Shown: positions 12,575-34,549 of the stretch, piece by piece
Position numbering within the stretch: position 1 is the first letter of the stretch
Layout: each line of letters begins with the position of its first letter
Source: Clostridia bacterium
GTDB lineage: Bacteria; Bacillota; Clostridia; TANB77; CAG-465
DNA: 64,000 bases
Assembly (NCBI GenBank): GCA_045611765.1
Contig: JAZKXT010000012.1
Coordinates: 119,440-183,439 of the forward strand
Reading direction: 5' to 3'
The notes under the pieces: model-generated
Database searches by the model: none
Told to the model about the DNA's origin: nothing
Seen by the model: only the letters and a program-made list of their open reading frames with translations
Made by a program: the position numbers and the translations under genes

Positions 12575-15633
<3,059 letters not shown>

Positions 15634-19406: not shown

Positions 19407-19442
19407 TGTGAAATATAATAATTAAAATTGGAGGAACAGAAG

Positions 19443-20285
19443 ATGAGTATAGTTGATGTAAAAGAGATAGTAGAAAAGAAAAAAAATTCTTTAAAAAGAG
19501 AAATATTAGACTTAAGAGATAAAGGAATAATACCGAAACTTGCTGTAATACTTGCTAATGATATAGAAGCATCTAGAATATATGTGTCTAGAAAAAGAAA
19601 AATGTGTCAAGAACTTGGGATAGAGGAAGTAGAGTATCTATTTGATACTAAATGTACAACAGAGGACATCTTAGATACTATAGATAAACTAAATAAAAAT
19701 AGCGAAGTAGATGGAATACTTGTTCAACTTCCACTTTTCAAACATTTAGATGAGACCAAAATAATAGATAGCATAGTGCCTGAAAAGGACGTAGACGGAT
19801 TTTCGGCTGTAAATGTAGGTAGATTATATCAAGGGAAACCAACGGTTGTGCCTTGTACTCCTAAAGGCATACTTACTATACTTAAAGAATTAGATAAAGA
19901 TTTAAAAGGTAAGAATGCAGTTGTTGTTGGCCGTTCACAAATAGTTGGTAAACCCATGGCATCACTTCTTCTTAATGAGGATATGACGGTAACGATTTGT
20001 CATTCTAGAACAACTAATTTGCCAGAACATACAAGAAACGCTGATGTGCTTGTAGTAGCTACAGGAGTTGCACATTTAATTAAAGCAGATATGGTAAAAG
20101 AGGATGCTATAGTTATTGATGTAGGAATGAATAGGCTCAAAGATAAATTGGTAGGTGATGTAGACACTGAAAATGTAGCAAATAAAGCGAAATATGTTAC
20201 ACCTGTACCAGGTGGAGTAGGACTTACAACTGTACTTAGTTTAGCGCAGAATGTAGTTGAACTTAGTAAAAGAAGATTAAAATAA
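19443..20285 (+). CDS. folD: Bifunctional methylenetetrahydrofolate dehydrogenase/cyclohydrolase
   Basis: Contains DGILVQLPL, EKDVDGF, VVVGRSQIVGKP, TICHSRT and PVPGGVG. I prefer the ATG at 19443, with GGAGG upstream, over the TTG at 19428. Confidence 0.92.
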   Translation: MSIVDVKEIVEKKKNSLKREILDLRDKGIIPKLAVILANDIEASRIYVSRKRKMCQELGIEEVEYLFDTKCTTEDILDTIDKLNKNSEVDGILVQLPLFKHLDETKIIDSIVPEKDVDGFSAVNVGRLYQGKPTVVPCTPKGILTILKELDKDLKGKNAVVVGRSQIVGKPMASLLLNEDMTVTICHSRTTNLPEHTRNADVLVVATGVAHLIKADMVKEDAIVIDVGMNRLKDKLVGDVDTENVANKAKYVTPVPGGVGLTTVLSLAQNVVELSKRRLK

Positions 20286-20290
20286 TAAAT

Positions 20291-20318
20291 AAATACCTGC
20301 AATTATTTGCAGGTATTT
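20291..20318. terminator. Bidirectional hairpin terminator (copy 1 of the ACCTGCAATTATTTGCAGGT repeat, 20295-20314)
   Basis: AAATACCTGCAA / TTGCAGGTATTT stem flanked by an A-run and a T-run. It lies between the convergent folD and HD genes. Confidence 0.75.
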
Positions 20319-20865
20319 ATTTAATCTCTATATTAATCATATGAGAAATAGTGTCTAACTTATTAATTCTCTGTGCTACTTTAGCAGGATGATGTGCTTT
20401 TGCATCTGCATATTGTAGCTGTAATCGTTTTTTTATTAGTCCTAAATCGTTATCTAGTTGGTGGGGATTTATAGGAGTATCGTGTGTTTTAACAAGATAT
20501 GCTACTCTTTCTACAAAACTCAAGTCAAAACCTATTTTTAACAAAGCTTGACGAGTAATTTTTTCTGAGACTTCAGGGTGCCCGTGGAAATGTCGTATAT
20601 CTCCTTCTTGATAACAAAAAGGTTTGCCAATATCGTGTAATAGAGCTGCCATATTAAGCTCTAAATCTAATGTGTTTAAATTACGTATTACTTCTAATGT
20701 GTGTTCCCATACATCAAGATGATGATGAGGATGCTTGTGATCAAAGCCTATCATATTTTGTATTTGGGGAATTAATTTAAGAAAGAAATTTAAGTTTGAG
20801 GTTATATTTTGTGCAACTGGACCGCTAGATAAATAGTTTGCAATATTTTGCCGCAAAGTTTTCAT
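20317..20865 (-). CDS. HD-domain phosphohydrolase (similar to the HD module of CCA-adding enzymes)
   Basis: 182 aa with HHHLDVWEHTLEV and LLHDIGKP motifs. Confidence 0.7.
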   Translation of the reverse strand: MKTLRQNIANYLSSGPVAQNITSNLNFFLKLIPQIQNMIGFDHKHPHHHLDVWEHTLEVIRNLNTLDLELNMAALLHDIGKPFCYQEGDIRHFHGHPEVSEKITRQALLKIGFDLSFVERVAYLVKTHDTPINPHQLDNDLGLIKKRLQLQYADAKAHHPAKVAQRINKLDTISHMINIEIK

Positions 20866-20955: not shown

Positions 20956-20968
20956 ATAAATAGAAAAT

Positions 20969-20996
20969 AAAAACCTGCAATTATTTGCAGGTTTTT
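20969..20996 (-). terminator. Hairpin terminator of the T4CP-like gene (copy 2 of the ACCTGCAATTATTTGCAGGT repeat, 20973-20992)
   Basis: AAAAACCTGCAA / TTGCAGGTTTTT stem. On the minus strand a T-run follows. Confidence 0.75.
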
Positions 20997-21004
20997 AAAT
21001 GTTT

Positions 21005-23473
21005 CTAATCTTTCTTATCAGTTCCAGTATCTATTACGATATCGAAATCATCGTTATTTAAATCAAATGTTTTAATTGCTTCGTTTAATTCGTCGTTTTC
21101 CATAATAGCAGGTGGATTATCAGTATCGTTATGTGGAAGCTCTTGAGTTGCCACAGGATTTTCTACAAATCTTTCTTCAGATATTGAAGGAGTTCCAAAT
21201 GAATCAAATATATTATCATTATCTTCTTCCATAATATAAGCTGTTGGGCTTGTAGCAGTGCTACTAGAAAATCCACTAGATATAGGTTTGTTGATCATAA
21301 ACTTTTCAAAGTTATACATATATGCTGGATGCTTTTGTTTATACTTATCTTCTAAGAAACCAACTTTTCCTTCTCCGAACACTGTATTACCGTTAGGAGC
21401 TTTAGTTTTGTAATAGATATATCCGAACTTGTGCTCTGCAATTTTGTGTACTTTAAATCTTTCTTTATCTTTAACTTGTACAGATTTTTTAGCTTTAAAA
21501 TTACCGTCTAGAGGGTCGAAGCTAGAGGACATATCCACTTTCTTCGCCATACCAAATGCTTTATTCCAATATTCACTGTCTTCAGGAGTTGTATCGCCAA
21601 ATACAATTTGAGTTTTTGTATTTGCTAAAACCACTTCTCTATAATATTCCATACCTTTATGTTTCTCAAGTTGAGATAAGTTTTGGATTGCAATCATCGC
21701 TCCACATCTGTATTTTCTGAATAATGTAAACATTACTTCAGTATCCTTATTGATGTATTCTGGGAATTCATCAACAAACAAGAAGTGTGGTATACGAGAA
21801 TCTTCTGAACCAGGTCTTCTTAGTACTGCGTCTTGGAATTGAAGTATAAAGAACATACCAAATGCTTTAGATGCGATTATACCAAGTTCGCCTTTTCTAG
21901 AACATGCAGTTATAACTTGACCTTCACGTAAAGCTTTATCGAAATCGATTACGTTAGTTCTACCACAAAGCGCTTTCTTAATACCAGGATGTCTTAACAA
22001 GTTATTAAGTTGTGTAATAGCACCATATAGATATCTTTCAGTATCTTTTCTTCCGCTGCCACGAGTACCAGGTATTTCAAATCCGTTTATATTCAAACTT
22101 GGTTTATAGAAATTCTTTTCAAAGTACGCAATAAGCAGTTTGTATTTTTCAGCAAGTTCTGGTATTTTCTTCATATCTTCTGTCATTTCTTCAACTTTAT
22201 CAAAGTTATATAGTAAGTCTAATACGTCTTCTAATGATGGAAGTTCACCATTGTGAAGTCTAGGATACATTTCTTTAAGTAGTATAGATAAGTTTTGGAA
22301 TGCATCCGAAGTTAGGTTTGCAAAGAAAGCTTCTTCTTTTGCGCCTTCGCTTTGTTGCATAGATTTTAAAACATCGGCAATTATTGATGCTACTTTGGCT
22401 GGGTCATTAATTGCAAATGGATTCATACTTAAAGTGTGCTCTGGATCAGCAGGGTCTATTGTTAATACTTCGATATCAAAGTTTTTAGCAACGTTTGTGA
22501 AATCTGAAACATATTTACCATCGTTTTCAACAACTGTTATACCAACATTTCTAAAAACAACTTCTCCAGTAGAATCATTTTTATATAATATTAAATCTTC
22601 TAGTTCTTTGTAAAATTCTTTTTCTTTTCCCTTTTTAGGAAGCAAGTAATTTAAGTTGAAGTTTAAATTAATATATTCGTTAGAGTATGGCCCTACGATG
22701 TAAGCGACTCCTCTTTTTAATAATCCGAAAGCAAGTTTTTTAGAGTATTCTCTTAAGAAATATTTTTTCTCAAGGTCTCTTGAACTCATAGGAAGTAATA
22801 CGGCAGCTGTTTTACCTGTACCAGTAGCACCTTGTACAAGAGTAGCTTCCATTCTTTTCTTCTCTGAAACTACAACTGGTTTTAAAGTGTCTACATCTTT
22901 ACAGATTATATTTTCACAAGTAAATATTCCTTTATCTGCTTTAGGTTTTGAAACGGATAATCCACCAAAACCAATAATACCTTTCGTTATGTCTTCATCT
23001 CTTAATATTAGTAGGAAATAATCTATCATATAGAATATTCCAATGAATGGTACTACAAATGATACGGTTTTTATAGCTGGTGCAAATAACTCTGGATATT
23101 CTGATCTAATTAATGAATAATTAGGAACTTTTTCAAGAAGCATCCAAACCACTTTATTAATATTTGTAATTAATAATGATGCAGCAATAGAGCCAAATAT
23201 TCCAACAGTTATCATAAACCATTTTATACGAGCATCTTTACCAGAGATAAGCTTTGTATTTACTGCGTATGAATAACATAGCACAGGACAAATCAAAGCG
23301 GCGGCGTAGGTAATAGGTCCTGGTAAAAAGGCAAGTCTTCCATCGCTTATAATAAGCGTTACAAATTGTACCAAAACAAAAGCTGTTACGACTAATGTCA
23401 AAATGCCAAATAATACGGCAAGGAATTTGTTTTGGTCTTTAATTTTTAATTTACTAAGTATATTGTATAACAA
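21005..23473 (-). CDS. VirD4/TraG/TraD-type type IV coupling protein-like membrane ATPase (orphan)
   Basis: 822 aa with about 4 N-terminal TM helices. Walker A is LVQGATGTGKTAAV and Walker B is HFLFVDEFPEY. A T4CP-typical stretch reads AMIAIQNLSQLEKHKG..TKTQIVFGDTTPEDSEYWNKAFG. There is an acidic C-terminal tail. The start codon is TTG. Confidence 0.7.
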   Translation of the reverse strand: MLYNILSKLKIKDQNKFLAVLFGILTLVVTAFVLVQFVTLIISDGRLAFLPGPITYAAALICPVLCYSYAVNTKLISGKDARIKWFMITVGIFGSIAASLLITNINKVVWMLLEKVPNYSLIRSEYPELFAPAIKTVSFVVPFIGIFYMIDYFLLILRDEDITKGIIGFGGLSVSKPKADKGIFTCENIICKDVDTLKPVVVSEKKRMEATLVQGATGTGKTAAVLLPMSSRDLEKKYFLREYSKKLAFGLLKRGVAYIVGPYSNEYINLNFNLNYLLPKKGKEKEFYKELEDLILYKNDSTGEVVFRNVGITVVENDGKYVSDFTNVAKNFDIEVLTIDPADPEHTLSMNPFAINDPAKVASIIADVLKSMQQSEGAKEEAFFANLTSDAFQNLSILLKEMYPRLHNGELPSLEDVLDLLYNFDKVEEMTEDMKKIPELAEKYKLLIAYFEKNFYKPSLNINGFEIPGTRGSGRKDTERYLYGAITQLNNLLRHPGIKKALCGRTNVIDFDKALREGQVITACSRKGELGIIASKAFGMFFILQFQDAVLRRPGSEDSRIPHFLFVDEFPEYINKDTEVMFTLFRKYRCGAMIAIQNLSQLEKHKGMEYYREVVLANTKTQIVFGDTTPEDSEYWNKAFGMAKKVDMSSSFDPLDGNFKAKKSVQVKDKERFKVHKIAEHKFGYIYYKTKAPNGNTVFGEGKVGFLEDKYKQKHPAYMYNFEKFMINKPISSGFSSSTATSPTAYIMEEDNDNIFDSFGTPSISEERFVENPVATQELPHNDTDNPPAIMENDELNEAIKTFDLNNDDFDIVIDTGTDKKD

Positions 23474-23594
23474 AAAATCACCACTTTCATTTACGTTATT
23501 GTAATTAAACTAAATCTAATATATAATATACTACAGATTAACTAAAACTTCAAGTGAAACTTGACAAGTTTAGAGTAAAGTTGAGGTATTTTTT

Positions 23595-24128
23595 ATGAAA
23601 TGTATAATTGGATTAGGTAATATAGGAAATGAATACGAAAATACAAGGCATAATAGCGGCTTTATAGCTATAGATGAAATTGCAAAAAAATATAATATCG
23701 TTTTAGATAAAAAGAAGAAAAAGTGTATATATGGAGAAGGAATTATTAATGGTAATAAAGTGTCTTTAGTAAAACCTACAACATATATGAATTTGAGTGG
23801 TGAGGCTATTGTAGAAATGCTAAATTGGTATAAGATTACTACACAAGATATTATAGTAATATATGATGATGTAGATTTAAAATTTGGTACGATTAGATAT
23901 AGAGAAAAAGGAAGTAGCGGAACACATAACGGAATGAAGAATATAATAGCAAATTTAAAAACAGAAGAATTTGCTAGAGTTAGAGTTGGAATAGAAAATA
24001 GAGGCAACACACCTATACCACTTATGGATTACGTACTTCAAAAGTTTAATAAACAAGAGTTGGAAGAAATAAATGGGAAAATAGTTCCACAAGTAGAAGA
24101 AAATATATTAAACTTCTTGACAAAGTAA
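23595..24128 (+). CDS. pth: Peptidyl-tRNA hydrolase
   Basis: MKCIIGLGNIGNEYENTRHNSGF, then PTTYMNLSGEAI and GSSGTHNGMKNI motifs. Confidence 0.93.
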   Translation: MKCIIGLGNIGNEYENTRHNSGFIAIDEIAKKYNIVLDKKKKKCIYGEGIINGNKVSLVKPTTYMNLSGEAIVEMLNWYKITTQDIIVIYDDVDLKFGTIRYREKGSSGTHNGMKNIIANLKTEEFARVRVGIENRGNTPIPLMDYVLQKFNKQELEEINGKIVPQVEENILNFLTK

Positions 24129-24232: not shown

Positions 24233-24589
24233 ATGTACGCTATAATTGAAGCATGTGGAAAACAATACAAAGTTTCTGAAGGAGATATTGTTTTCATGGA
24301 AAGACTTGATAATGAAGAAGGAACAACAGTTACTTTCGATCAAGTATTACTAGTTTCTGGCGACGACAAAACAGAGGTTGGAGCACCTACAGTTAAAAAT
24401 GCTAAGGTAACAGCAACAGTTGTTGGTCACGGAAAAGGTAAAAAAATAAGAGTGTTCAAGTACAAAGCTAAAAAGAATGAAAGAAAGACTAGAGGACACA
24501 GATGGTGCTACACTAAAGTTCAAATTGAAAAAATTTCTACTAAAGCACCTGCTAAAAAAGCTGAAACTACTGAAACAGCAGAAGCTTAA
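24233..24589 (+). CDS. rplU: 50S ribosomal protein L21
   Basis: [18 protein letters not shown]..., [17 protein letters not shown]. It carries a short Ala/Lys/Thr-rich C-terminal tail. Confidence 0.95.
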
Positions 24590-24625
24590 AGTTATTTAAA
24601 TGAATTTGAAAAGGAGTTGAGATAA

Positions 24626-24883
24626 ATGGCACATAAAAAAGGTGGTGGATCTACTAAGAACGGTAGAGACAGTATAGGTAAAAGACTTGGTGCTAAAAGA
24701 GCAGACGGACAATTTGTTCAAGCTGGAAATATATTAGTAAGACAAAGAGGAACAAAAATACATCCAGGAACAAATGTTGGAATCGGTAAAGATGATACAT
24801 TATTTGCTAAAGTAAGTGGAATACTTAAATTTGAAAGATTAGGTAGAGAAAAAACTAAAGCAAGTGTATATGAAGAAAAATAG
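24626..24883 (+). CDS. rpmA: 50S ribosomal protein L27 (no N-terminal propeptide)
   Basis: [31 protein letters not shown]. The protein starts directly at the mature-type AHKK sequence. Confidence 0.95.
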
Positions 24884-24893
24884 TTACAAAAAT

Positions 24894-24934
24894 AAAAAGA
24901 ATTCCTAGGGATTTAACCCTAGGAGTTCTTTTTT
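24894..24934. terminator. Bidirectional terminator shared by rpmA and the convergent membrane-protein gene
   Basis: A stem of about 14 bp, AGAATTCCTAGGG / CCCTAGGAGTTCT, flanked by an A-run and a T-run. The stop codon of the minus-strand gene lies inside the 3' arm. Confidence 0.8.
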
Positions 24935-25983
24935 ATCAGGCAAATTATGCCACAGATAATTATTACACCTATTCCTATAGGAAATGCGAATTGGAAGCAT
25001 CCAAGAATTGGTGCGAATACTGCTAGCGGCAAGTCGAATAAGATGAAACCAGTGAATTCATAATCACCAGCGACAATATCCTTAAATAGAATAAGGATGT
25101 TTATACCAATTCCTATTCCGCAAGTTATCAAGAAAGCAGACAGACAAGAGGTGAATTTACATTCTTTTACAAATAGACTCATTAAAACAGCTATGATACC
25201 ACCGATAAGCGATGAAAAGAAGCAAATTGTAATTCCGATATCACCTTCGGGAATATAGGTACTGAGGTCTTTCCAACTTTGAGGAATCATCTTGATTGCT
25301 ATGATTAAGACAAGTATGCCAATGGCTAACCAAGCAATAGGACCTAAGCATCCACTATTTTCTTCTGAACCACCGCTAGGTATTGGAGCAGGAGGCGGAG
25401 TAAAATCAGGTTTCTTATACTCATACTCTTGTTTAGGGGGCTCATAAATAGGTGGTTCCTCATGCCGCTTTTCTATTTTAGGCGGTTCTTGTTTAGGAGG
25501 AATATATTTTTGCTCCGGTTTATGTGGAAGCTCTTTTTGCACACTTTGCTGAGTAGAAGTTGTCTTTTTGGGTTGAGTTACCTTGGTTTTTTCTGGACTT
25601 TTCTTAGGTGTTTCGCTTGCCTTTTGTTTTGGCTCAGTACTACTGACGGGGCATGCAGTTTTCTTGATGAAAGGCGTAGTAAGAGAATGTTTGTAAGCAA
25701 TGTAACTTGCTAAGGCGCCCGAATGTGTGCCGGTGTAGGTTCCTAAAATCTTATTATATGACTGGTTACGCAAGATTTTATCTCTATTGTGAGCTTCGAG
25801 AATTCCTTCGTCATGCAAAATCCAACTGTGATCAGAGTAATGGTTAAACTTGGAAAGCAAAGAAGAAGTGCTAAGCCAGGTCACCCCGTTGTCATTATAG
25901 GTGGCACACATAATACCATCTATAAAAACATGGTTTTCATCATAGAAAATTTGCTTGTCTCCCAATTTCAAAACAAACTTCAT
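24919..25983 (-). CDS. Hypothetical membrane protein: N-terminal soluble domain, Pro/Lys/Glu-rich linker, C-terminal polytopic domain
   Basis: 354 aa. The linker reads PKQEPPKIEKRHEEPPIYEPPKQEYEYKKPDFTPPPAPIP. About 4 hydrophobic helices follow. No family recognised. Confidence 0.55.
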   Translation of the reverse strand: MKFVLKLGDKQIFYDENHVFIDGIMCATYNDNGVTWLSTSSLLSKFNHYSDHSWILHDEGILEAHNRDKILRNQSYNKILGTYTGTHSGALASYIAYKHSLTTPFIKKTACPVSSTEPKQKASETPKKSPEKTKVTQPKKTTSTQQSVQKELPHKPEQKYIPPKQEPPKIEKRHEEPPIYEPPKQEYEYKKPDFTPPPAPIPSGGSEENSGCLGPIAWLAIGILVLIIAIKMIPQSWKDLSTYIPEGDIGITICFFSSLIGGIIAVLMSLFVKECKFTSCLSAFLITCGIGIGINILILFKDIVAGDYEFTGFILFDLPLAVFAPILGCFQFAFPIGIGVIIICGIICLIKKNS

Positions 25984-30646: not shown

Positions 30647-33379
30647 GTGATTAAATTACCAAAGAAATTTAAATGGGGTTCAAAAATATTTGGTATATCT
30701 ATAGCACTTTTATTTATGTTAAATAGTACAGAGGCAAGTATAAGAAAAGATTTGCCTGTGTCAAAAGTGTCGGACGAATTTCCGGAGACGTACCAACTAT
30801 ATATAGATAAATTAAAAGAGAGATATCCTACAGCGACATTTAAAGCTGTATACACTGGTTTGGATTGGAACTTAGTATTAAAACATGAAAGCTATGAGGT
30901 AAAAAAGGGAATTAGTTTGGTGCCAAGTAGTTATTCAACAGTATGGAAGAAAGATGGAAAAAACATATATATGGATGGCAACTTTGTAGTAGCATCAAAA
31001 AGTGCAGTAGCATACGTACTTGATCCAAGAAATTCCTTGTATGAAAAAACAGTATTTCAGTTCGAAGGTCTTTCATACAATCCAAATATAACGACGGATG
31101 TAATAGAAAAAGTAATGAGTTCATCACCAATGATAGGGTCATATTCTAATAAGTATAAAAATGCTGGACAATGGATAGAGATGGACATGTCTTACGCAGA
31201 TATTATACATAAAGTAGGGGAAGAACAAGGTGTTAGTAGTGTATATATTGCTTCAAGATTAATACAAGAAACATCAGGAGACATTGTAAACAATGGCAGT
31301 ATTAACGGCTCGAATGTGACATATCCAGGGGTATACAATTTCTTTAATATTGGTGCTACACCGAATGCAGATGGAACGGGCGCGGTTTTAAATGGTTTAA
31401 AATATGCCAAGTCGCAAGGATGGACAAATCCGTATTTTGCTATATCCGGTGGAGTAAGTGAGATAAAAAATTCATATATAAAATATGGTCAAGATACAGT
31501 ATATTTCCAAAAATTCGATGTTAATAATCCGTATGGTAATGCGAGCGCGCTTATGGCGTATCAATACCAAACTAACATAATGGCTCCTACAAGTGAGAGT
31601 TTAATATCTTATAGGGCATATAGTAAATTAGATATGCTAGATGCAGCTTTTACATTCTACATTCCAGTATACAACAACATGCCACAAGACCCTACGCCAT
31701 ATCCTGCTGGAGATACAGCAAAGTTTGAGGTAGACAACACTAAAGTATACTTAGATGATACAACAGATAGTGGTAAAGAAATATTTAATATTCGTTCTTC
31801 AGCAAATGCTGAGCTAGATAATATAATATATACAATAACAGAAACTTCAGAAGATGCAAATGAAAGAACAATATTAACTAGAACACAAAAAGGAAATGGC
31901 TATGACTGGGATTATGTAGAAGTTAAAATTGATGGTAAAACTGTTAAGGGATATGTATGGAAAGACTATGTACAAACATACCAATATACAAAAGTAGAGA
32001 GTGTTTCTTTAGATAAGACGGAAATTACAATAGAAGAGGATGAAACATTAAAATTGGTAGCGACGGTAATGCCAGAAGGTGCTAGGTTTAAAGAAATAAT
32101 ATGGGCATCTTCACATAACAATATAGTAACTGTGGAAAATGGAGAGATAAAAGGTGTTGGTGTGGGAACAGCAACTATAACAGCTGCAACTGAAGATCAA
32201 GGTAAAATAGCAGTGTGTCAAGTTACTGTAAATGAGAAACCATATGACATGACATTAGATAAGGATGCATATACAGTAGAAGCTGGATGTCAAATAACAC
32301 CAACAGTAACGCTAAAAAAAGTGGAACAATATACACTAACAGTTGCAGATGAAAATATTGCAAAAGTAATAGATAATAAAACTATAGAAGGCTTGGCTGA
32401 AGGAGAAACAACAATTGAGGTGCGTGCTGTAGGGGTTGAACTTGTAAAAACAGCAAAACTTACAGTAACTCCAAAAGAATATTTAATAATAACGGATAAA
32501 GAGGAATATACTGTAGAAGTAGAAAGTACAACAACTCCAACTGTTACTTTGAAAAATATACAAGGTTATACATTAGAGATAGTAGATACAACTATAGCAT
32601 TGCTAGAAGACAAGACTATAAAGGGAATAAAGGCAGGAGAAACGACTTTAAGAATATTAGGTATTGGTACAGAAATGGTCAAAGAAGTGAAGTTAATAGT
32701 ATCTCCTAAGGAACAAAAAATAACTTTAGATAAGCAAGAATATATTATAAGAATAGGTGAAACTGTAACGCCAGAAATTACGCTTAAAAACATAGAAGGA
32801 TATACTTTAGAGGTATTAGATACAACTATAGCGACTGTAGAAGATAAAACTGTAAAAGGTGTAGTGGCAGGCGAGACAATATTAAGAGTGCTAGGGATAG
32901 ATACAGAAATTGTTAAAGAGGTAAAATTAACAGTACTACCAAATGAAAGTTATACATTAGACGAAAGTATAAAATTAGATGTTGAAACTAAACAAATTTC
33001 AGGAATATCTGAGGCAACGAAAGTTTCGGATGTTAAGTCGAAAATAAAGATTGAAGGATTAAATGTTAAGTTCAAAGATATTAATAATAATGAACTAACA
33101 GATGAATCTTTAATAGGAACTGGAACAATAATAGCATTCTTAAGAGAAGATAATACGGAATATGATAAACTAACGGTTGTTGTATATGGAGATGTAAACG
33201 GTGACGGTTACATATTTGCAAACGACTATGTATTAATAAAAAATTATATAATGGGTGAAGGCGATTTGACTAGCATAGGTAAAACCGCAGCAGATGTTAG
33301 TAGAGATACGTATGTATATGCAAATGATTATGTACTAATAAAAAATTATATAATGGGTGAAGGAAGTATCACTCAGTAA
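30647..33379 (+). CDS. Secreted multidomain cell-wall hydrolase: GH73-type N-acetylglucosaminidase, SH3-like domain, Big_2 Ig-like domain, three tandem 78-80-aa repeats, C-terminal type I dockerin
   Basis: GTG start and a signal-anchor. The glucosaminidase motif reads ASRLIQETSGD...YNFFNIGA. The Big_2-like stretch reads GTATITAATEDQGKIAVCQVTV. The dockerin reads GDVNGDGYIFANDYVLIKNYIMGEG plus a second degenerate segment. Confidence 0.75.
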   Translation: MIKLPKKFKWGSKIFGISIALLFMLNSTEASIRKDLPVSKVSDEFPETYQLYIDKLKERYPTATFKAVYTGLDWNLVLKHESYEVKKGISLVPSSYSTVWKKDGKNIYMDGNFVVASKSAVAYVLDPRNSLYEKTVFQFEGLSYNPNITTDVIEKVMSSSPMIGSYSNKYKNAGQWIEMDMSYADIIHKVGEEQGVSSVYIASRLIQETSGDIVNNGSINGSNVTYPGVYNFFNIGATPNADGTGAVLNGLKYAKSQGWTNPYFAISGGVSEIKNSYIKYGQDTVYFQKFDVNNPYGNASALMAYQYQTNIMAPTSESLISYRAYSKLDMLDAAFTFYIPVYNNMPQDPTPYPAGDTAKFEVDNTKVYLDDTTDSGKEIFNIRSSANAELDNIIYTITETSEDANERTILTRTQKGNGYDWDYVEVKIDGKTVKGYVWKDYVQTYQYTKVESVSLDKTEITIEEDETLKLVATVMPEGARFKEIIWASSHNNIVTVENGEIKGVGVGTATITAATEDQGKIAVCQVTVNEKPYDMTLDKDAYTVEAGCQITPTVTLKKVEQYTLTVADENIAKVIDNKTIEGLAEGETTIEVRAVGVELVKTAKLTVTPKEYLIITDKEEYTVEVESTTTPTVTLKNIQGYTLEIVDTTIALLEDKTIKGIKAGETTLRILGIGTEMVKEVKLIVSPKEQKITLDKQEYIIRIGETVTPEITLKNIEGYTLEVLDTTIATVEDKTVKGVVAGETILRVLGIDTEIVKEVKLTVLPNESYTLDESIKLDVETKQISGISEATKVSDVKSKIKIEGLNVKFKDINNNELTDESLIGTGTIIAFLREDNTEYDKLTVVVYGDVNGDGYIFANDYVLIKNYIMGEGDLTSIGKTAADVSRDTYVYANDYVLIKNYIMGEGSITQ
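32237..32947 (+). repeat. Three tandem coding repeats (234-240 bp each) inside the autolysin gene
   Basis: The peptide units are LDK.EYTVE....TPTVTLKN..GYTLE..DTTIA..EDKT.KG..AGETT.R.LG...E.VKEVKL.V.PKE. Unit boundaries are at about 32237, 32479 and 32714. Confidence 0.85.
33188..33376 (+). other. Dockerin type I module (two Ca-binding loop/helix segments)
   Basis: GDVNGDGYIFANDYVLIKNYIMG is followed by ADVSRDTYVYANDYVLIKNYIMG. The DNA units at 33218-33262 and 33320-33364 are near-identical and offset by 102 nt. Confidence 0.7.
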
Positions 33380-33394
33380 GAAAGGAATATAGTA

Positions 33395-34549
33395 ATGAAG
33401 AAAATATTTATGATATTAGTGATGTGTGTGTGTTTCATATTTATAGGGAACGTATATGCTGCAAATGTAACGTTATCTGGTTCTTCAACTGGTACACCGG
33501 GCAAGAAAATAACTATTACAGTAAAAGGCGATTTTACAGGCAGAGTAAATTTAAATGCAAATAATGGTACTTTAAGTAAAAGCAGTGTTTGGATAGAAAA
33601 CAATTCTCAAACAGTTACAGTTACTTTGGGGAATAGTGGAAGCACAGTGGTAACGGCAACACCGGCAACAGGCGCATCAGATAAGGACGGAAATATAATA
33701 ACAGTATCAGCAAAGAGTAAAACGATAACAATATCTCAGCCAACTACTACGGGAGATAAAGAGACTACAACAACTACAAAGTCTTCAAATTGTAACTTGT
33801 CTAAAATATCTTTAAGCGTGGAAGGGTTAAGTTTTAAATCTAGTCAAACAACATACAATATAAAGGTTGGACCTGATGTAGATAATATAACTGTAAAAGC
33901 GACGCCAGCTCATTCTAGAGCAACATATACCGTAAGTGGCAATAAGAACTTAAAAGCAGGAAACAATGTTATAAAGATTGTTGTAAGAGCAGAAAATGGT
34001 GCTACAAAAACATATAAAATAAATGTAGAAAAAGCGGGAGATATAGAAGATACAAGTGCGGAGCTTTCTAACCTAATAATAGAGGATATGACATTAGATA
34101 AACCTTTTGCACCCACAGAAACAGAATATACTGGCAGCAAAATGAAGTATACACAAAGGTTAAATATTTTACCATATACGGTTTCAGAAAAGGCAACATA
34201 TGAAATACTAGGAAACGAAGATTTTAAAGAGGGTGAAAATACAATTATTATAAAAGTAACTTCATTTGATGGTACAAACGAATTAGAGTATAAGGTTACT
34301 TTTGAGATGATGTCTGAGCAAGAAACAAATGCGCTTCAAATAGTACAGCCGAATGATAATAATATTGGAAGTGCAATTATGAATGAAAAGACAGAAAAAA
34401 CATTTTGGGATTTGGTAGCTGAAAATTCAACAATTATTTTGTTATATTTATTAGCTTTAGTTGAATTTGGTCAAGTGATATATCTATATGTACAATTACA
34501 GAGCGTCAATCCAGATTCTCTAAAAGTAAAAAGACGTAGACAAAAATAA
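33395..34549 (+). CDS. Surface protein: signal peptide, about 95-aa beta-rich N-domain, two cadherin-like beta-sandwich domains, C-terminal TM anchor
   Basis: NLSKISLSVEGLSFKSSQTTYNIKV...GNNVIKIVVRAENGATKTYKINV and LSNLIIEDMTLDKPFAPTETEYT...GENTIIIKVTSFDGTNELEYKVT fit the cadherin-like beta-sandwich family pattern. There is a hydrophobic helix plus KVKRRRQK at the C-terminus. Confidence 0.65.
   Translation: MKKIFMILVMCVCFIFIGNVYAANVTLSGSSTGTPGKKITITVKGDFTGRVNLNANNGTLSKSSVWIENNSQTVTVTLGNSGSTVVTATPATGASDKDGNIITVSAKSKTITISQPTTTGDKETTTTTKSSNCNLSKISLSVEGLSFKSSQTTYNIKVGPDVDNITVKATPAHSRATYTVSGNKNLKAGNNVIKIVVRAENGATKTYKINVEKAGDIEDTSAELSNLIIEDMTLDKPFAPTETEYTGSKMKYTQRLNILPYTVSEKATYEILGNEDFKEGENTIIIKVTSFDGTNELEYKVTFEMMSEQETNALQIVQPNDNNIGSAIMNEKTEKTFWDLVAENSTIILLYLLALVEFGQVIYLYVQLQSVNPDSLKVKRRRQK

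Follow-up and report, generated by a model that had tools for sequence, protein, structure and literature searches.

Vertical inheritance of a type IV coupling protein gene, with no relaxase gene beside it, in uncultured gut Clostridia

A 64-kb window of DNA from a Clostridia bacterium (positions 119,440 to 183,439 of contig JAZKXT010000012.1, assembly GCA_045611765.1) contains a gene for an 822-amino-acid ATPase of the type IV coupling protein (T4CP) family (21005..23473, minus strand; all coordinates are those of the window unless a locus is named). Comparison with related loci showed that it behaves as a selected, core-like chromosomal gene that uncultured gut Clostridia of low GC content inherit vertically and that nearly always lies divergent to pth, the gene for peptidyl-tRNA hydrolase (23595..24128, plus strand). 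As the best explanation of the whole, we consider the chances somewhat better than even that this T4CP has been domesticated and has a selected host-level function that needs no adjacent relaxase. The function is taken to be independent of a neighbouring relaxase because the relaxase has been lost repeatedly while the T4CP stayed constrained. Domestication was one of two alternatives offered in an earlier reading of the DNA (the initial annotation), and synteny, ratios of non-synonymous to synonymous substitution rates (dN/dS) and sequence conservation all support it.

Inheritance, selection and expression signals of the T4CP gene

The homologues numbered more than 600; the best 120 of them, at 55–100% identity and mostly 800–850 amino acids (aa) in length, came from gut metagenome-assembled genomes named 'Clostridia bacterium'. 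The T4CP gene was divergent from pth-rplU-rpmA (rplU and rpmA encode ribosomal proteins L21 and L27) in 12 genome loci extending down to 66% identity. Other loci at 55–67% identity retained the pth side, and adjacency to pth was retained in all loci of the pth clade down to 43–44% T4CP identity. The folD-uppP-dpaA side of the locus was kept down to 78% T4CP identity. The initial annotation had placed the gene between folD and pth and had raised the question of whether orthologues share this position; the answer is yes for the pth side over the entire range given above, and for the folD side only over the narrower one. In the window itself both neighbours are present (folD at 19428..20285), but an HD-domain gene (20317..20865, minus strand) sits between folD and the T4CP gene.

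Within the window the T4CP gene is an orphan. Pfam scans took in approximately 50 open reading frames (ORFs) across the 64 kb, nine of them without annotation, and revealed no relaxase, VirB4 or integrase; the usual setting of T4CPs, an adjacent relaxase and a type IV secretion system (T4SS) containing VirB4, was not found in these 64 kb. The domains detected were those of housekeeping and sporulation genes (dinB, spoIVA, recJ, relA, queA, tgt, cls, a dpaA-like gene, uppP, folD and pth, and further rplU, rpmA, obg, hrcA-grpE-dnaK-dnaJ, smc, holA and others), and a gene for a class-I tRNA synthetase of the W/Y type is probably trpS. No tRNA gene adjoins the T4CP gene, and no direct repeats flank it except for a terminator duplication around the HD gene. 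Features expected of an integrative and conjugative element (ICE) or an integrative and mobilizable element were likewise missing: there was no integrase, att repeat or tRNA gene, the GC content of the T4CP gene (0.32–0.33) was like that of the rest of the window, and the same locus was occupied in all relatives. Pfam and repeat scans thus agree with the initial annotation, which had reported no relaxase, VirB4, integrase or repeat boundary in the window and a host-like base composition.

Against the two closest relatives (dS ~0.8), the T4CP gene gave a dN/dS of 0.07–0.08, compared with 0.09–0.10 for pth, 0.06 for cls, 0.04–0.06 for folD and 0.03 for obg. In a deep comparison, with locus L013, the T4CP was 64% identical, as against 45% for Pth and 58% for Obg. 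By these estimates, purifying selection on the T4CP is shown to be as strong as on neighbouring housekeeping genes. The other alternative of the initial annotation saw in the gene all that is left of a decayed element. In its strict form, this alternative makes it a functionless remnant of an ICE or mobilizable element that is becoming a pseudogene. Its orphan state, the absence of its former partners from the locus (see below) and the variability among relatives of the region just downstream, where some have the HD gene, others lack it and further insertions are seen, would be consistent with such a fate. However, the ORF is full-length with all catalytic motifs intact, there are hundreds of full-length orthologues of 800–850 aa, and promoter, ribosome-binding site and start codon are conserved. 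The low dN/dS, the motif conservation across 63 sequences and, in the deep comparison, an identity higher than that of Pth or Obg effectively refute decay, to which we assign almost no probability. The word remnant is apt as history, since this locus has lost genes for a relaxase and an S1-domain protein, but there is no decay of the T4CP gene.

Signals for expression were conserved along with the coding sequence. An intact ORF with a TTG start was present, as the initial annotation had described, with a ribosome-binding site, GGTGA (23478..23482, minus strand), 4 nucleotides ahead of it in a block, 'gaaagtggtga', that is kept across orthologues. The TTG is conserved in orthologous loci and may hold down translation of this membrane ATPase. 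In two loci, L014 and L020, gene callers had picked a later ATG, although the TTG start is conserved family-wide. A consensus scan of the divergent pth/T4CP intergenic region predicted a sigma-A-like promoter, TTGAAG-17-TATATT (23525..23553, minus strand), whose -35/-10 block ('cttgaag...gtagtatattatat') is kept in orthologous loci to approximately 58% protein identity. The gene's own terminator, also noted initially, is an intrinsic hairpin 3' of the coding sequence (20968..20997, minus strand), in one of two 40-nucleotide direct-repeat copies that bracket the HD gene. Promoter and start codon together would be expected to give low-level, constitutive expression of the T4CP.

The promoter also bears on a different function. 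The T4CP might be a sporulation-specific or cell-division translocase of DNA or protein, FtsK/SpoIIIE-like or associated with a feeding tube, which we judge improbable. The window carries spoIVA and a dpaA-like gene, the T4CP gene behaves in a core-like manner, and T4CPs are relatives of FtsK/SpoIIIE, likewise hexameric motors anchored in the membrane, all consistent with that function. Read against consensus sequences, however, the upstream element matches sigma-A-type -35/-10 hexamers and not the consensus of a forespore or mother-cell sigma factor; moreover, consistent linkage to a sporulation gene was not seen, the genes nearby differ between loci except for pth, and the predicted fold is closer to T4CPs than to other ASCE translocases (HerA, VirB4). 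The sporulation- or envelope-related role that the initial annotation had proposed as possible therefore found no support, the conserved upstream signal resembling an ordinary sigma-A-type promoter.

Domain structure and family assignment

A first AlphaFold2 (AF2) model, from 33 close homologues, had a predicted local distance difference test score (pLDDT) of 66.9, with the Walker A region and aa 596–648 below 50, and was replaced by a final model based on a 63-sequence alignment (mean pLDDT 79.5). In this model the N-terminal membrane domain (aa 14–158; 23000..23434, minus strand), which is conserved in the family, contains four predicted transmembrane helices (aa 14–42, 53–72, 79–114 and 131–158; pLDDT ~80–90), in agreement with hydropathy analysis and with the number initially estimated. 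Walker A, GATGTGKT, lies at aa 215–222 (22808..22831, minus strand), and G215, G218, G220, K221 and T222 were invariant in the 63 sequences, which extend down to 34% identity. Walker B, FLFVDEFPEY, occupies aa 564–573 (21755..21784, minus strand), with VDEF at aa 567–570; D568 was invariant and E569 kept in at least 90% of the 63 homologues. Both motifs had been recognized initially, with coordinates that were off by 1 nucleotide for Walker A and by approximately 7 for Walker B.

AF2 and Foldseek place an all-alpha insertion in the nucleotide-binding domain at approximately aa 355–518 (21920..22411, minus strand), with only helices between the strands at aa 336–339 and 520–524; it is the counterpart of the all-alpha domain of T4CPs. 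Downstream of this insertion a conserved stretch, AIQNLSQLEK...TQIVFGDTTPEDSEYWNKAFG (21551..21691, minus strand), which had been singled out as typical of T4CPs, was located with its two blocks AIQNLSQLEKHKG (21653..21691, minus strand) and TQIVFGDTTPEDSEYWNKAFG (21551..21613, minus strand). Across the 63 homologues Q597, N598 and Q601 were kept in at least 90%, and N618, F625, G626 and W636 were invariant.

The assignment to the T4CP family is sound. Three Pfam models matched above their gathering thresholds (GA): T4SS-DNA_transf (PF02534, 37.3 bits, GA 20.1), TraG-D_C (PF12696, aa 564–664, the match that includes the conserved stretch, 37.8 bits, GA 22) and TrwB_AAD_bind (PF10412, aa 549–658, also downstream of the all-alpha insertion, 23.1 bits, GA 20.5). 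The first two are the models that the initial annotation had named for checking its family call, and the fold agrees with them. A Foldseek search of the Protein Data Bank (PDB) returned only Cagbeta, TrwB or DotL structures at ranks 1–39 (E-values 7.7e-12 to 1.5e-7; TM-scores normalized to the target 0.51–0.69). The best match was Cagbeta (8dol, E = 7.7e-12), TrwB reached the target TM-score of 0.69, and alignments to TrwB and Cagbeta spanned 520–585 columns, whereas HerA, the C-terminal domain of DndH, TdpAB and VirB4 ranked below the T4CPs, at 40 and lower. NCBIfam models gave only sub-threshold matches (the CD1115 family, 31.9 against a cut-off of 250), indicating that the protein is not a member of a named NCBIfam equivalog, and a sequence search of the PDB returned nothing useful.

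In its overall plan the protein resembles TrwB of R388, VirD4, Cagbeta of Helicobacter pylori and DotL of Legionella: an N-terminal membrane anchor is followed by a RecA-like domain with Walker A and B and an all-alpha insertion. A nucleotide-binding domain with these two motifs defines T4CPs (PMC7431656). In structural alignments it is only 12–15% identical to canonical T4CPs, and unlike them it has four transmembrane helices in approximately 160 aa and a 110-aa acidic tail. TrwB has two transmembrane helices. It differs from canonical T4CPs in genetic setting as well, having no relaxase or T4SS genes in 64 kb and being chromosomal, vertically inherited and core-like instead of residing on a mobile element.

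The acidic C-terminal tail, which the initial annotation had put at about 110 aa, comprises aa 713–822 (21008..21337, minus strand), with 23 D/E against 7 K/R residues, and ends in a conserved motif, DDFDIVIDTG (21023–21052). Residues 730–822 are predicted to be disordered (AF2 pLDDT < 50). The sequence of the tail is variable, yet an acidic, hydrophobic-strand motif recurs family-wide (DNFEIIFDD, DDAIIFDLKK, DSIVIDYK) and is kept alike in lineages with and without an adjacent relaxase gene. Since it recurs in both kinds of lineage, the motif suggests a docking peptide for a partner that would still be present, by analogy with TraD of the F plasmid, which binds TraM by its C-terminal tail.

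The T4CP-relaxase-S1 module, its losses and the likely function

Neither a relaxase-like nor an S1-domain homologue was found in the window or at the closest related loci, L001–L013, none of which has a PF13814 gene, the mark of a MOBC module, next to the T4CP gene. In L014, L015, L020 (66% identity) and L027 (65%), with pth synteny intact, a gene for a 340-aa protein lies convergently downstream of the T4CP orthologue. This protein matches Replic_Relax (PF13814) with 28.4 bits against a GA of 25.3 (28.0–28.4 over the loci), the family of MOBC relaxases (PMC5357655, Table 1), and is followed by the gene for a protein with two S1 domains, inside which the L027 contig ends. A PF13814 gene also lies convergently downstream of the T4CP gene, accompanied by an S1 gene except on the truncated L047 contig, in L044, L046, L047 and most loci of a sister (murJ) family, whose T4CPs are 36–41% identical, chromosomal and very abundant in human gut metagenomes. 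The usual order there is a murJ-like gene and HU, the T4CP gene, a relaxase-like gene of 313 codons, the S1 gene, and rluD, lspA, tsf and rpsB; the names of cluster members for the sister-family proteins yielded no organism or function names. An intermediate clade, L046/L047, has pth, T4CP and relaxase-like genes together, and in L046 also the S1 gene (the L047 contig stops just past the relaxase gene).

The closest T4CPs on plasmids were those of seven Clostridium plasmids, approximately 29% identical over 79–85% of the length, and no plasmids other than these seven carried relatives of the relaxase-like protein. These large mobile replicons are C. beijerinckii p1_circular (NZ_CP107023) and the C. 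botulinum pFWSKR40E1 family (NZ_KT897275-80). On both plasmids mapped (C. beijerinckii p1 and C. botulinum pFWSKR40E1) the S1 gene adjoins the relaxase-like gene, and the trio of T4CP, relaxase-like and S1 proteins alone is common to plasmids and chromosomes. The plasmids differ in having genes for a DUF87 (VirB4-like) ATPase, a C39 peptidase/hydrolase and a T2SS/T4SS-family ATPase near the T4CP gene. MOB-suite types NZ_CP107023.1 and NZ_KT897275-80 as 'non-mobilizable' despite their T4CP, MOBC-type relaxase homologue, DUF87/VirB4-like and T2SS/T4SS ATPases and cell-wall hydrolases. They probably have an unrecognized conjugation system, which calls for caution where 'non-mobilizable' plasmids carry a MOBC-type relaxase homologue and a T4CP.

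A neighbour-joining tree of 71 non-redundant T4CPs was rooted on the plasmid proteins, and gene context was mapped onto it. The chromosomal family formed one clade, on a long branch apart from the plasmid T4CPs. Lineages with the relaxase were L014/L020/L027, which are sister to the window's clade, together with L044, L046/L047 and most of the murJ clade. Nested among them were approximately five clades without it: the window's clade with L009/L026, a pth clade at 55–64% identity, L065/73/74, L078/79 and the L092–L105 group. Pairwise identities of T4CP and relaxase-like proteins were correlated (r = 0.92, 153 pairs). Because the identities correlate, the relaxase-plus clades are scattered over the tree and the same seven plasmids carry relatives of both proteins, sequence comparison shows that the lineage descends from a three-gene module of T4CP, MOBC-type relaxase homologue and S1-domain protein. 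On the simplest reading of the tree, relaxase and S1 were lost from the locus approximately five times, including once in the window's lineage, the T4CP being kept each time.

The main rival, which we think distinctly less probable than not, is that the T4CP retains its ancestral task of coupling relaxase-bound DNA to a T4SS, as a chromosomal mobilization function. Relaxase and channel would then be encoded at other places in the genome, or ICEs and plasmids that enter the cell would provide them in trans. MobB of CloDF13, which exploits the T4SS of co-resident plasmids (PMC7431656), is a precedent. Intact T4CP architecture and a docking-type tail are retained even in lineages without the relaxase, and in the sister sublineage L014/L020/L027 the orthologue adjoins relaxase and S1 genes. 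There is in addition an accessory cluster upstream of the S1 and relaxase-like genes, on the same strand, in L014 (14605-22472) and L020 (16534-22481). It encodes small proteins of no known family, a 1250–1300-aa peptidoglycan hydrolase (lysozyme/glucosaminidase, M23 and CHAP/C39-like domains) and more such proteins up to the edge of the fetched DNA; the hydrolase-containing operon was seen in L014/L015 and L020. Between L014 and L020 the cluster proteins are only 34–42% identical, compared with 83% for the T4CP, 93% for the relaxase-like protein, 89% for S1, 82% for Obg and 82–90% for housekeeping proteins. The cluster thus seems to act as an exchangeable accessory and the trio as the core, and is either an exchangeable cassette or a fast-evolving surface machinery. 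Hydrolase and small proteins resemble Gram-positive mating-pore modules, and the cluster may be one; the difference in identity would then fit a conserved DNA-processing module with exchangeable pores. In scans with NCBIfam and PHROGs models, the L014 proteins of the cluster showed peptidoglycan-hydrolase domains only. Those outside the trio had no BLAST similarity to plasmid proteins, and a metagenome scan to extend the cluster towards a VirB4 or second T4CP gave no match.

Other observations speak against continued transfer. About five losses of the adjacent relaxase with a constrained T4CP are hard to explain in this way, and repeated relocation of the relaxase gene is unparsimonious. At none of 80 metagenomic loci did a VirB4 (DUF87-type) or hydrolase homologue lie closer than 10 kb, and the L014/L020 cluster showed no VirB4 as far as its sequence extends. 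Finally, ICEs and plasmids usually carry their own T4CP, which leaves the benefit to the host doubtful.

The fold of the relaxase-like protein opens the way to yet another explanation, in which the T4CP would be the motor of a defence system against phages or plasmids, of the HerA, DndH or MADS type, paired in the relaxase-plus relatives with a PD-(D/E)XK nuclease. PF13814 belongs to the PD-(D/E)XK superfamily, with a restriction-endonuclease-type fold (PMC3424549), PADLOC gave a weak match of the T4CP to mad8 (31.6 bits), and HerA-Sir2, TdpAB and the DndH C-terminal domain appear among the lower-ranking Foldseek matches. We regard this explanation as very improbable: T4CP-specific Pfam models and T4CP structures come first, no other defence genes are linked and no partner genes of HerA-NurA, DndH or MADS were seen, and strict vertical inheritance at one housekeeping locus with a low dN/dS and co-divergence with the host is unlike defence islands.

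Among described systems, MobB/MobC of CloDF13 has the gene pairing of the ancestral module, combining a T4CP with a long, multi-helix membrane domain and a MOBC/Replic_Relax relaxase homologue and having no T4SS of its own. It is among the rare mobilization systems with their own T4CP, and the membrane domain of MobB measures approximately 150–184 aa with three helices (PMC7431656). The likeness is one of description and not of direct sequence comparison, and the module differs in being chromosomal, fixed and ancient and in including an S1 protein; in the window's lineage the relaxase is, furthermore, gone from the locus. The 'DNA translocation operon' of Bacillus phages 0305phi8-36 and SPO1 similarly joins a MobC-like relaxase and a VirD4-like ATPase with no T4SS (PMC3357382), but is phage-borne and dispensable. 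When 50,697 phage records were searched by tblastn with the window protein, there was no match, and IMG/VR viral contigs held no relatives, which suggests that there is no close phage relationship. The nearest precedent for work independent of a T4SS is TdtA of Thermus thermophilus, an FtsK/HerA-superfamily hexameric ATPase that expels donor DNA without a classical T4SS (PMC5365140). TdtA belongs to a different family and is encoded on ICETh1, not in the core genome, and there is no evidence of DNA export for the T4CP studied here. No description of an orphan or stand-alone, vertically inherited, core-like T4CP family was found in the literature.

Under domestication, the reading we favour, the T4CP would most likely still be a hexamer in the membrane that uses ATP to receive or translocate nucleic acid or nucleoprotein, and its C-terminal tail would recruit this substrate. 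Several points weigh against this reading. Conservation tells that the gene is used, not for what, and we know of no canonical T4CP that works without a T4SS channel. Searching sequencing runs with the T4CP sequence returned DNA metagenomes only and no evidence of expression. The tree is distance-based and without bootstrap values, so the count of losses is approximate, and 'relaxase-minus' refers to the fetched flank, up to 10 kb downstream, and not to whole genomes. Likewise, the absence of relaxase, S1 and T4SS genes applies to the 64-kb window and not to approximately 136 kb more of the 200-kb contig or to other contigs.

A bolder proposal, which we consider unlikely, is that the chromosomal T4CP needs no type IV secretion channel at all, that it acts together with the nuclease-fold relaxase and S1/OB-fold protein in the relaxase-plus relatives, and that six copies of the four-helix membrane domain form or gate a route for DNA or nucleoprotein into or out of the cell. 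If this were true, a channel-free T4CP would be a minimal, host-owned motor for DNA donation or handling, like TdtA in Thermus transjugation or TraB of Streptomyces in principle, and such a motor would be a core trait of the entire gut Clostridia lineage.

The surrounding window and the wider lineage

The HD gene next to the T4CP gene is bracketed by the 40-nucleotide direct repeats (20280-20319 and 20958-20997, 90% identical), both copies of which hold the terminator hairpin CCTGCAAATAATTGCAGG. It is present in L010 and absent in L001, which has a 90% identical T4CP and a folD–T4CP gap of approximately 66 bp. The HD gene looks like a small insertion into a shared bidirectional terminator, which it duplicated. 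It was also considered as a partner of the T4CP and rejected, being a lineage-specific insertion that is unrelated to the HD gene in the transfer region of the C. botulinum plasmid. On the pth side, rplU is followed directly by rpmA (24233-24883) with no prp/ysxB between them, and L27 begins MAHKKGGGS, without an N-terminal extension. In Firmicutes, L27 typically has an N-terminal extension that is cleaved by Prp. In a Clostridia-like genome with sporulation genes, an rplU-rpmA pair without prp is out of the ordinary, and it may serve as a taxonomic marker of the lineage. The next ORF (24919-25983, minus strand) encodes 354 aa with no family match, a proline/lysine/glutamate-rich middle and approximately four C-terminal transmembrane segments. 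Its slot, between rpmA and the probable trpS, is a second variable spot near the T4CP gene: relatives have genes there that are unrelated to it, PhoH/PIN in the case of L013 and others of no known function in L014, L018 and L020.

Further away, a 619-aa ORF (12575-14434) without a Pfam match lies between queA and tgt. It seems to be a fast-evolving gene within a conserved operon-like block, because it is only 26–29% identical in relatives in which Tgt is > 90% identical. The region 30647-34549 encodes a Big_2 protein of 910 aa that carries a type I dockerin at its C terminus, followed by a protein with cadherin-like domains; both are surface components of cellulosome style, here in the small, low-GC genome of a gut bacterium.

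In surveys of conjugation genes, a T4CP that lacks VirB4 or relaxase counts as debris or is assigned to a mobilizable island (classification in PMC3158045). The T4CP described here behaves instead like a housekeeping gene: its locus is fixed, its promoter and start codon are conserved, its dN/dS resembles that of pth, and it has survived repeated loss of the relaxase. It is a clear, well-populated case of a conjugation component turned core gene in a broad, abundant, uncultured gut lineage. Its relatives form a natural series, from T4CP with relaxase, S1 and a variable hydrolase cluster, through T4CP with relaxase and S1, to T4CP alone, and this series could reveal what a lone coupling protein does and whether bacteria keep a host-owned module for DNA transfer or handling.

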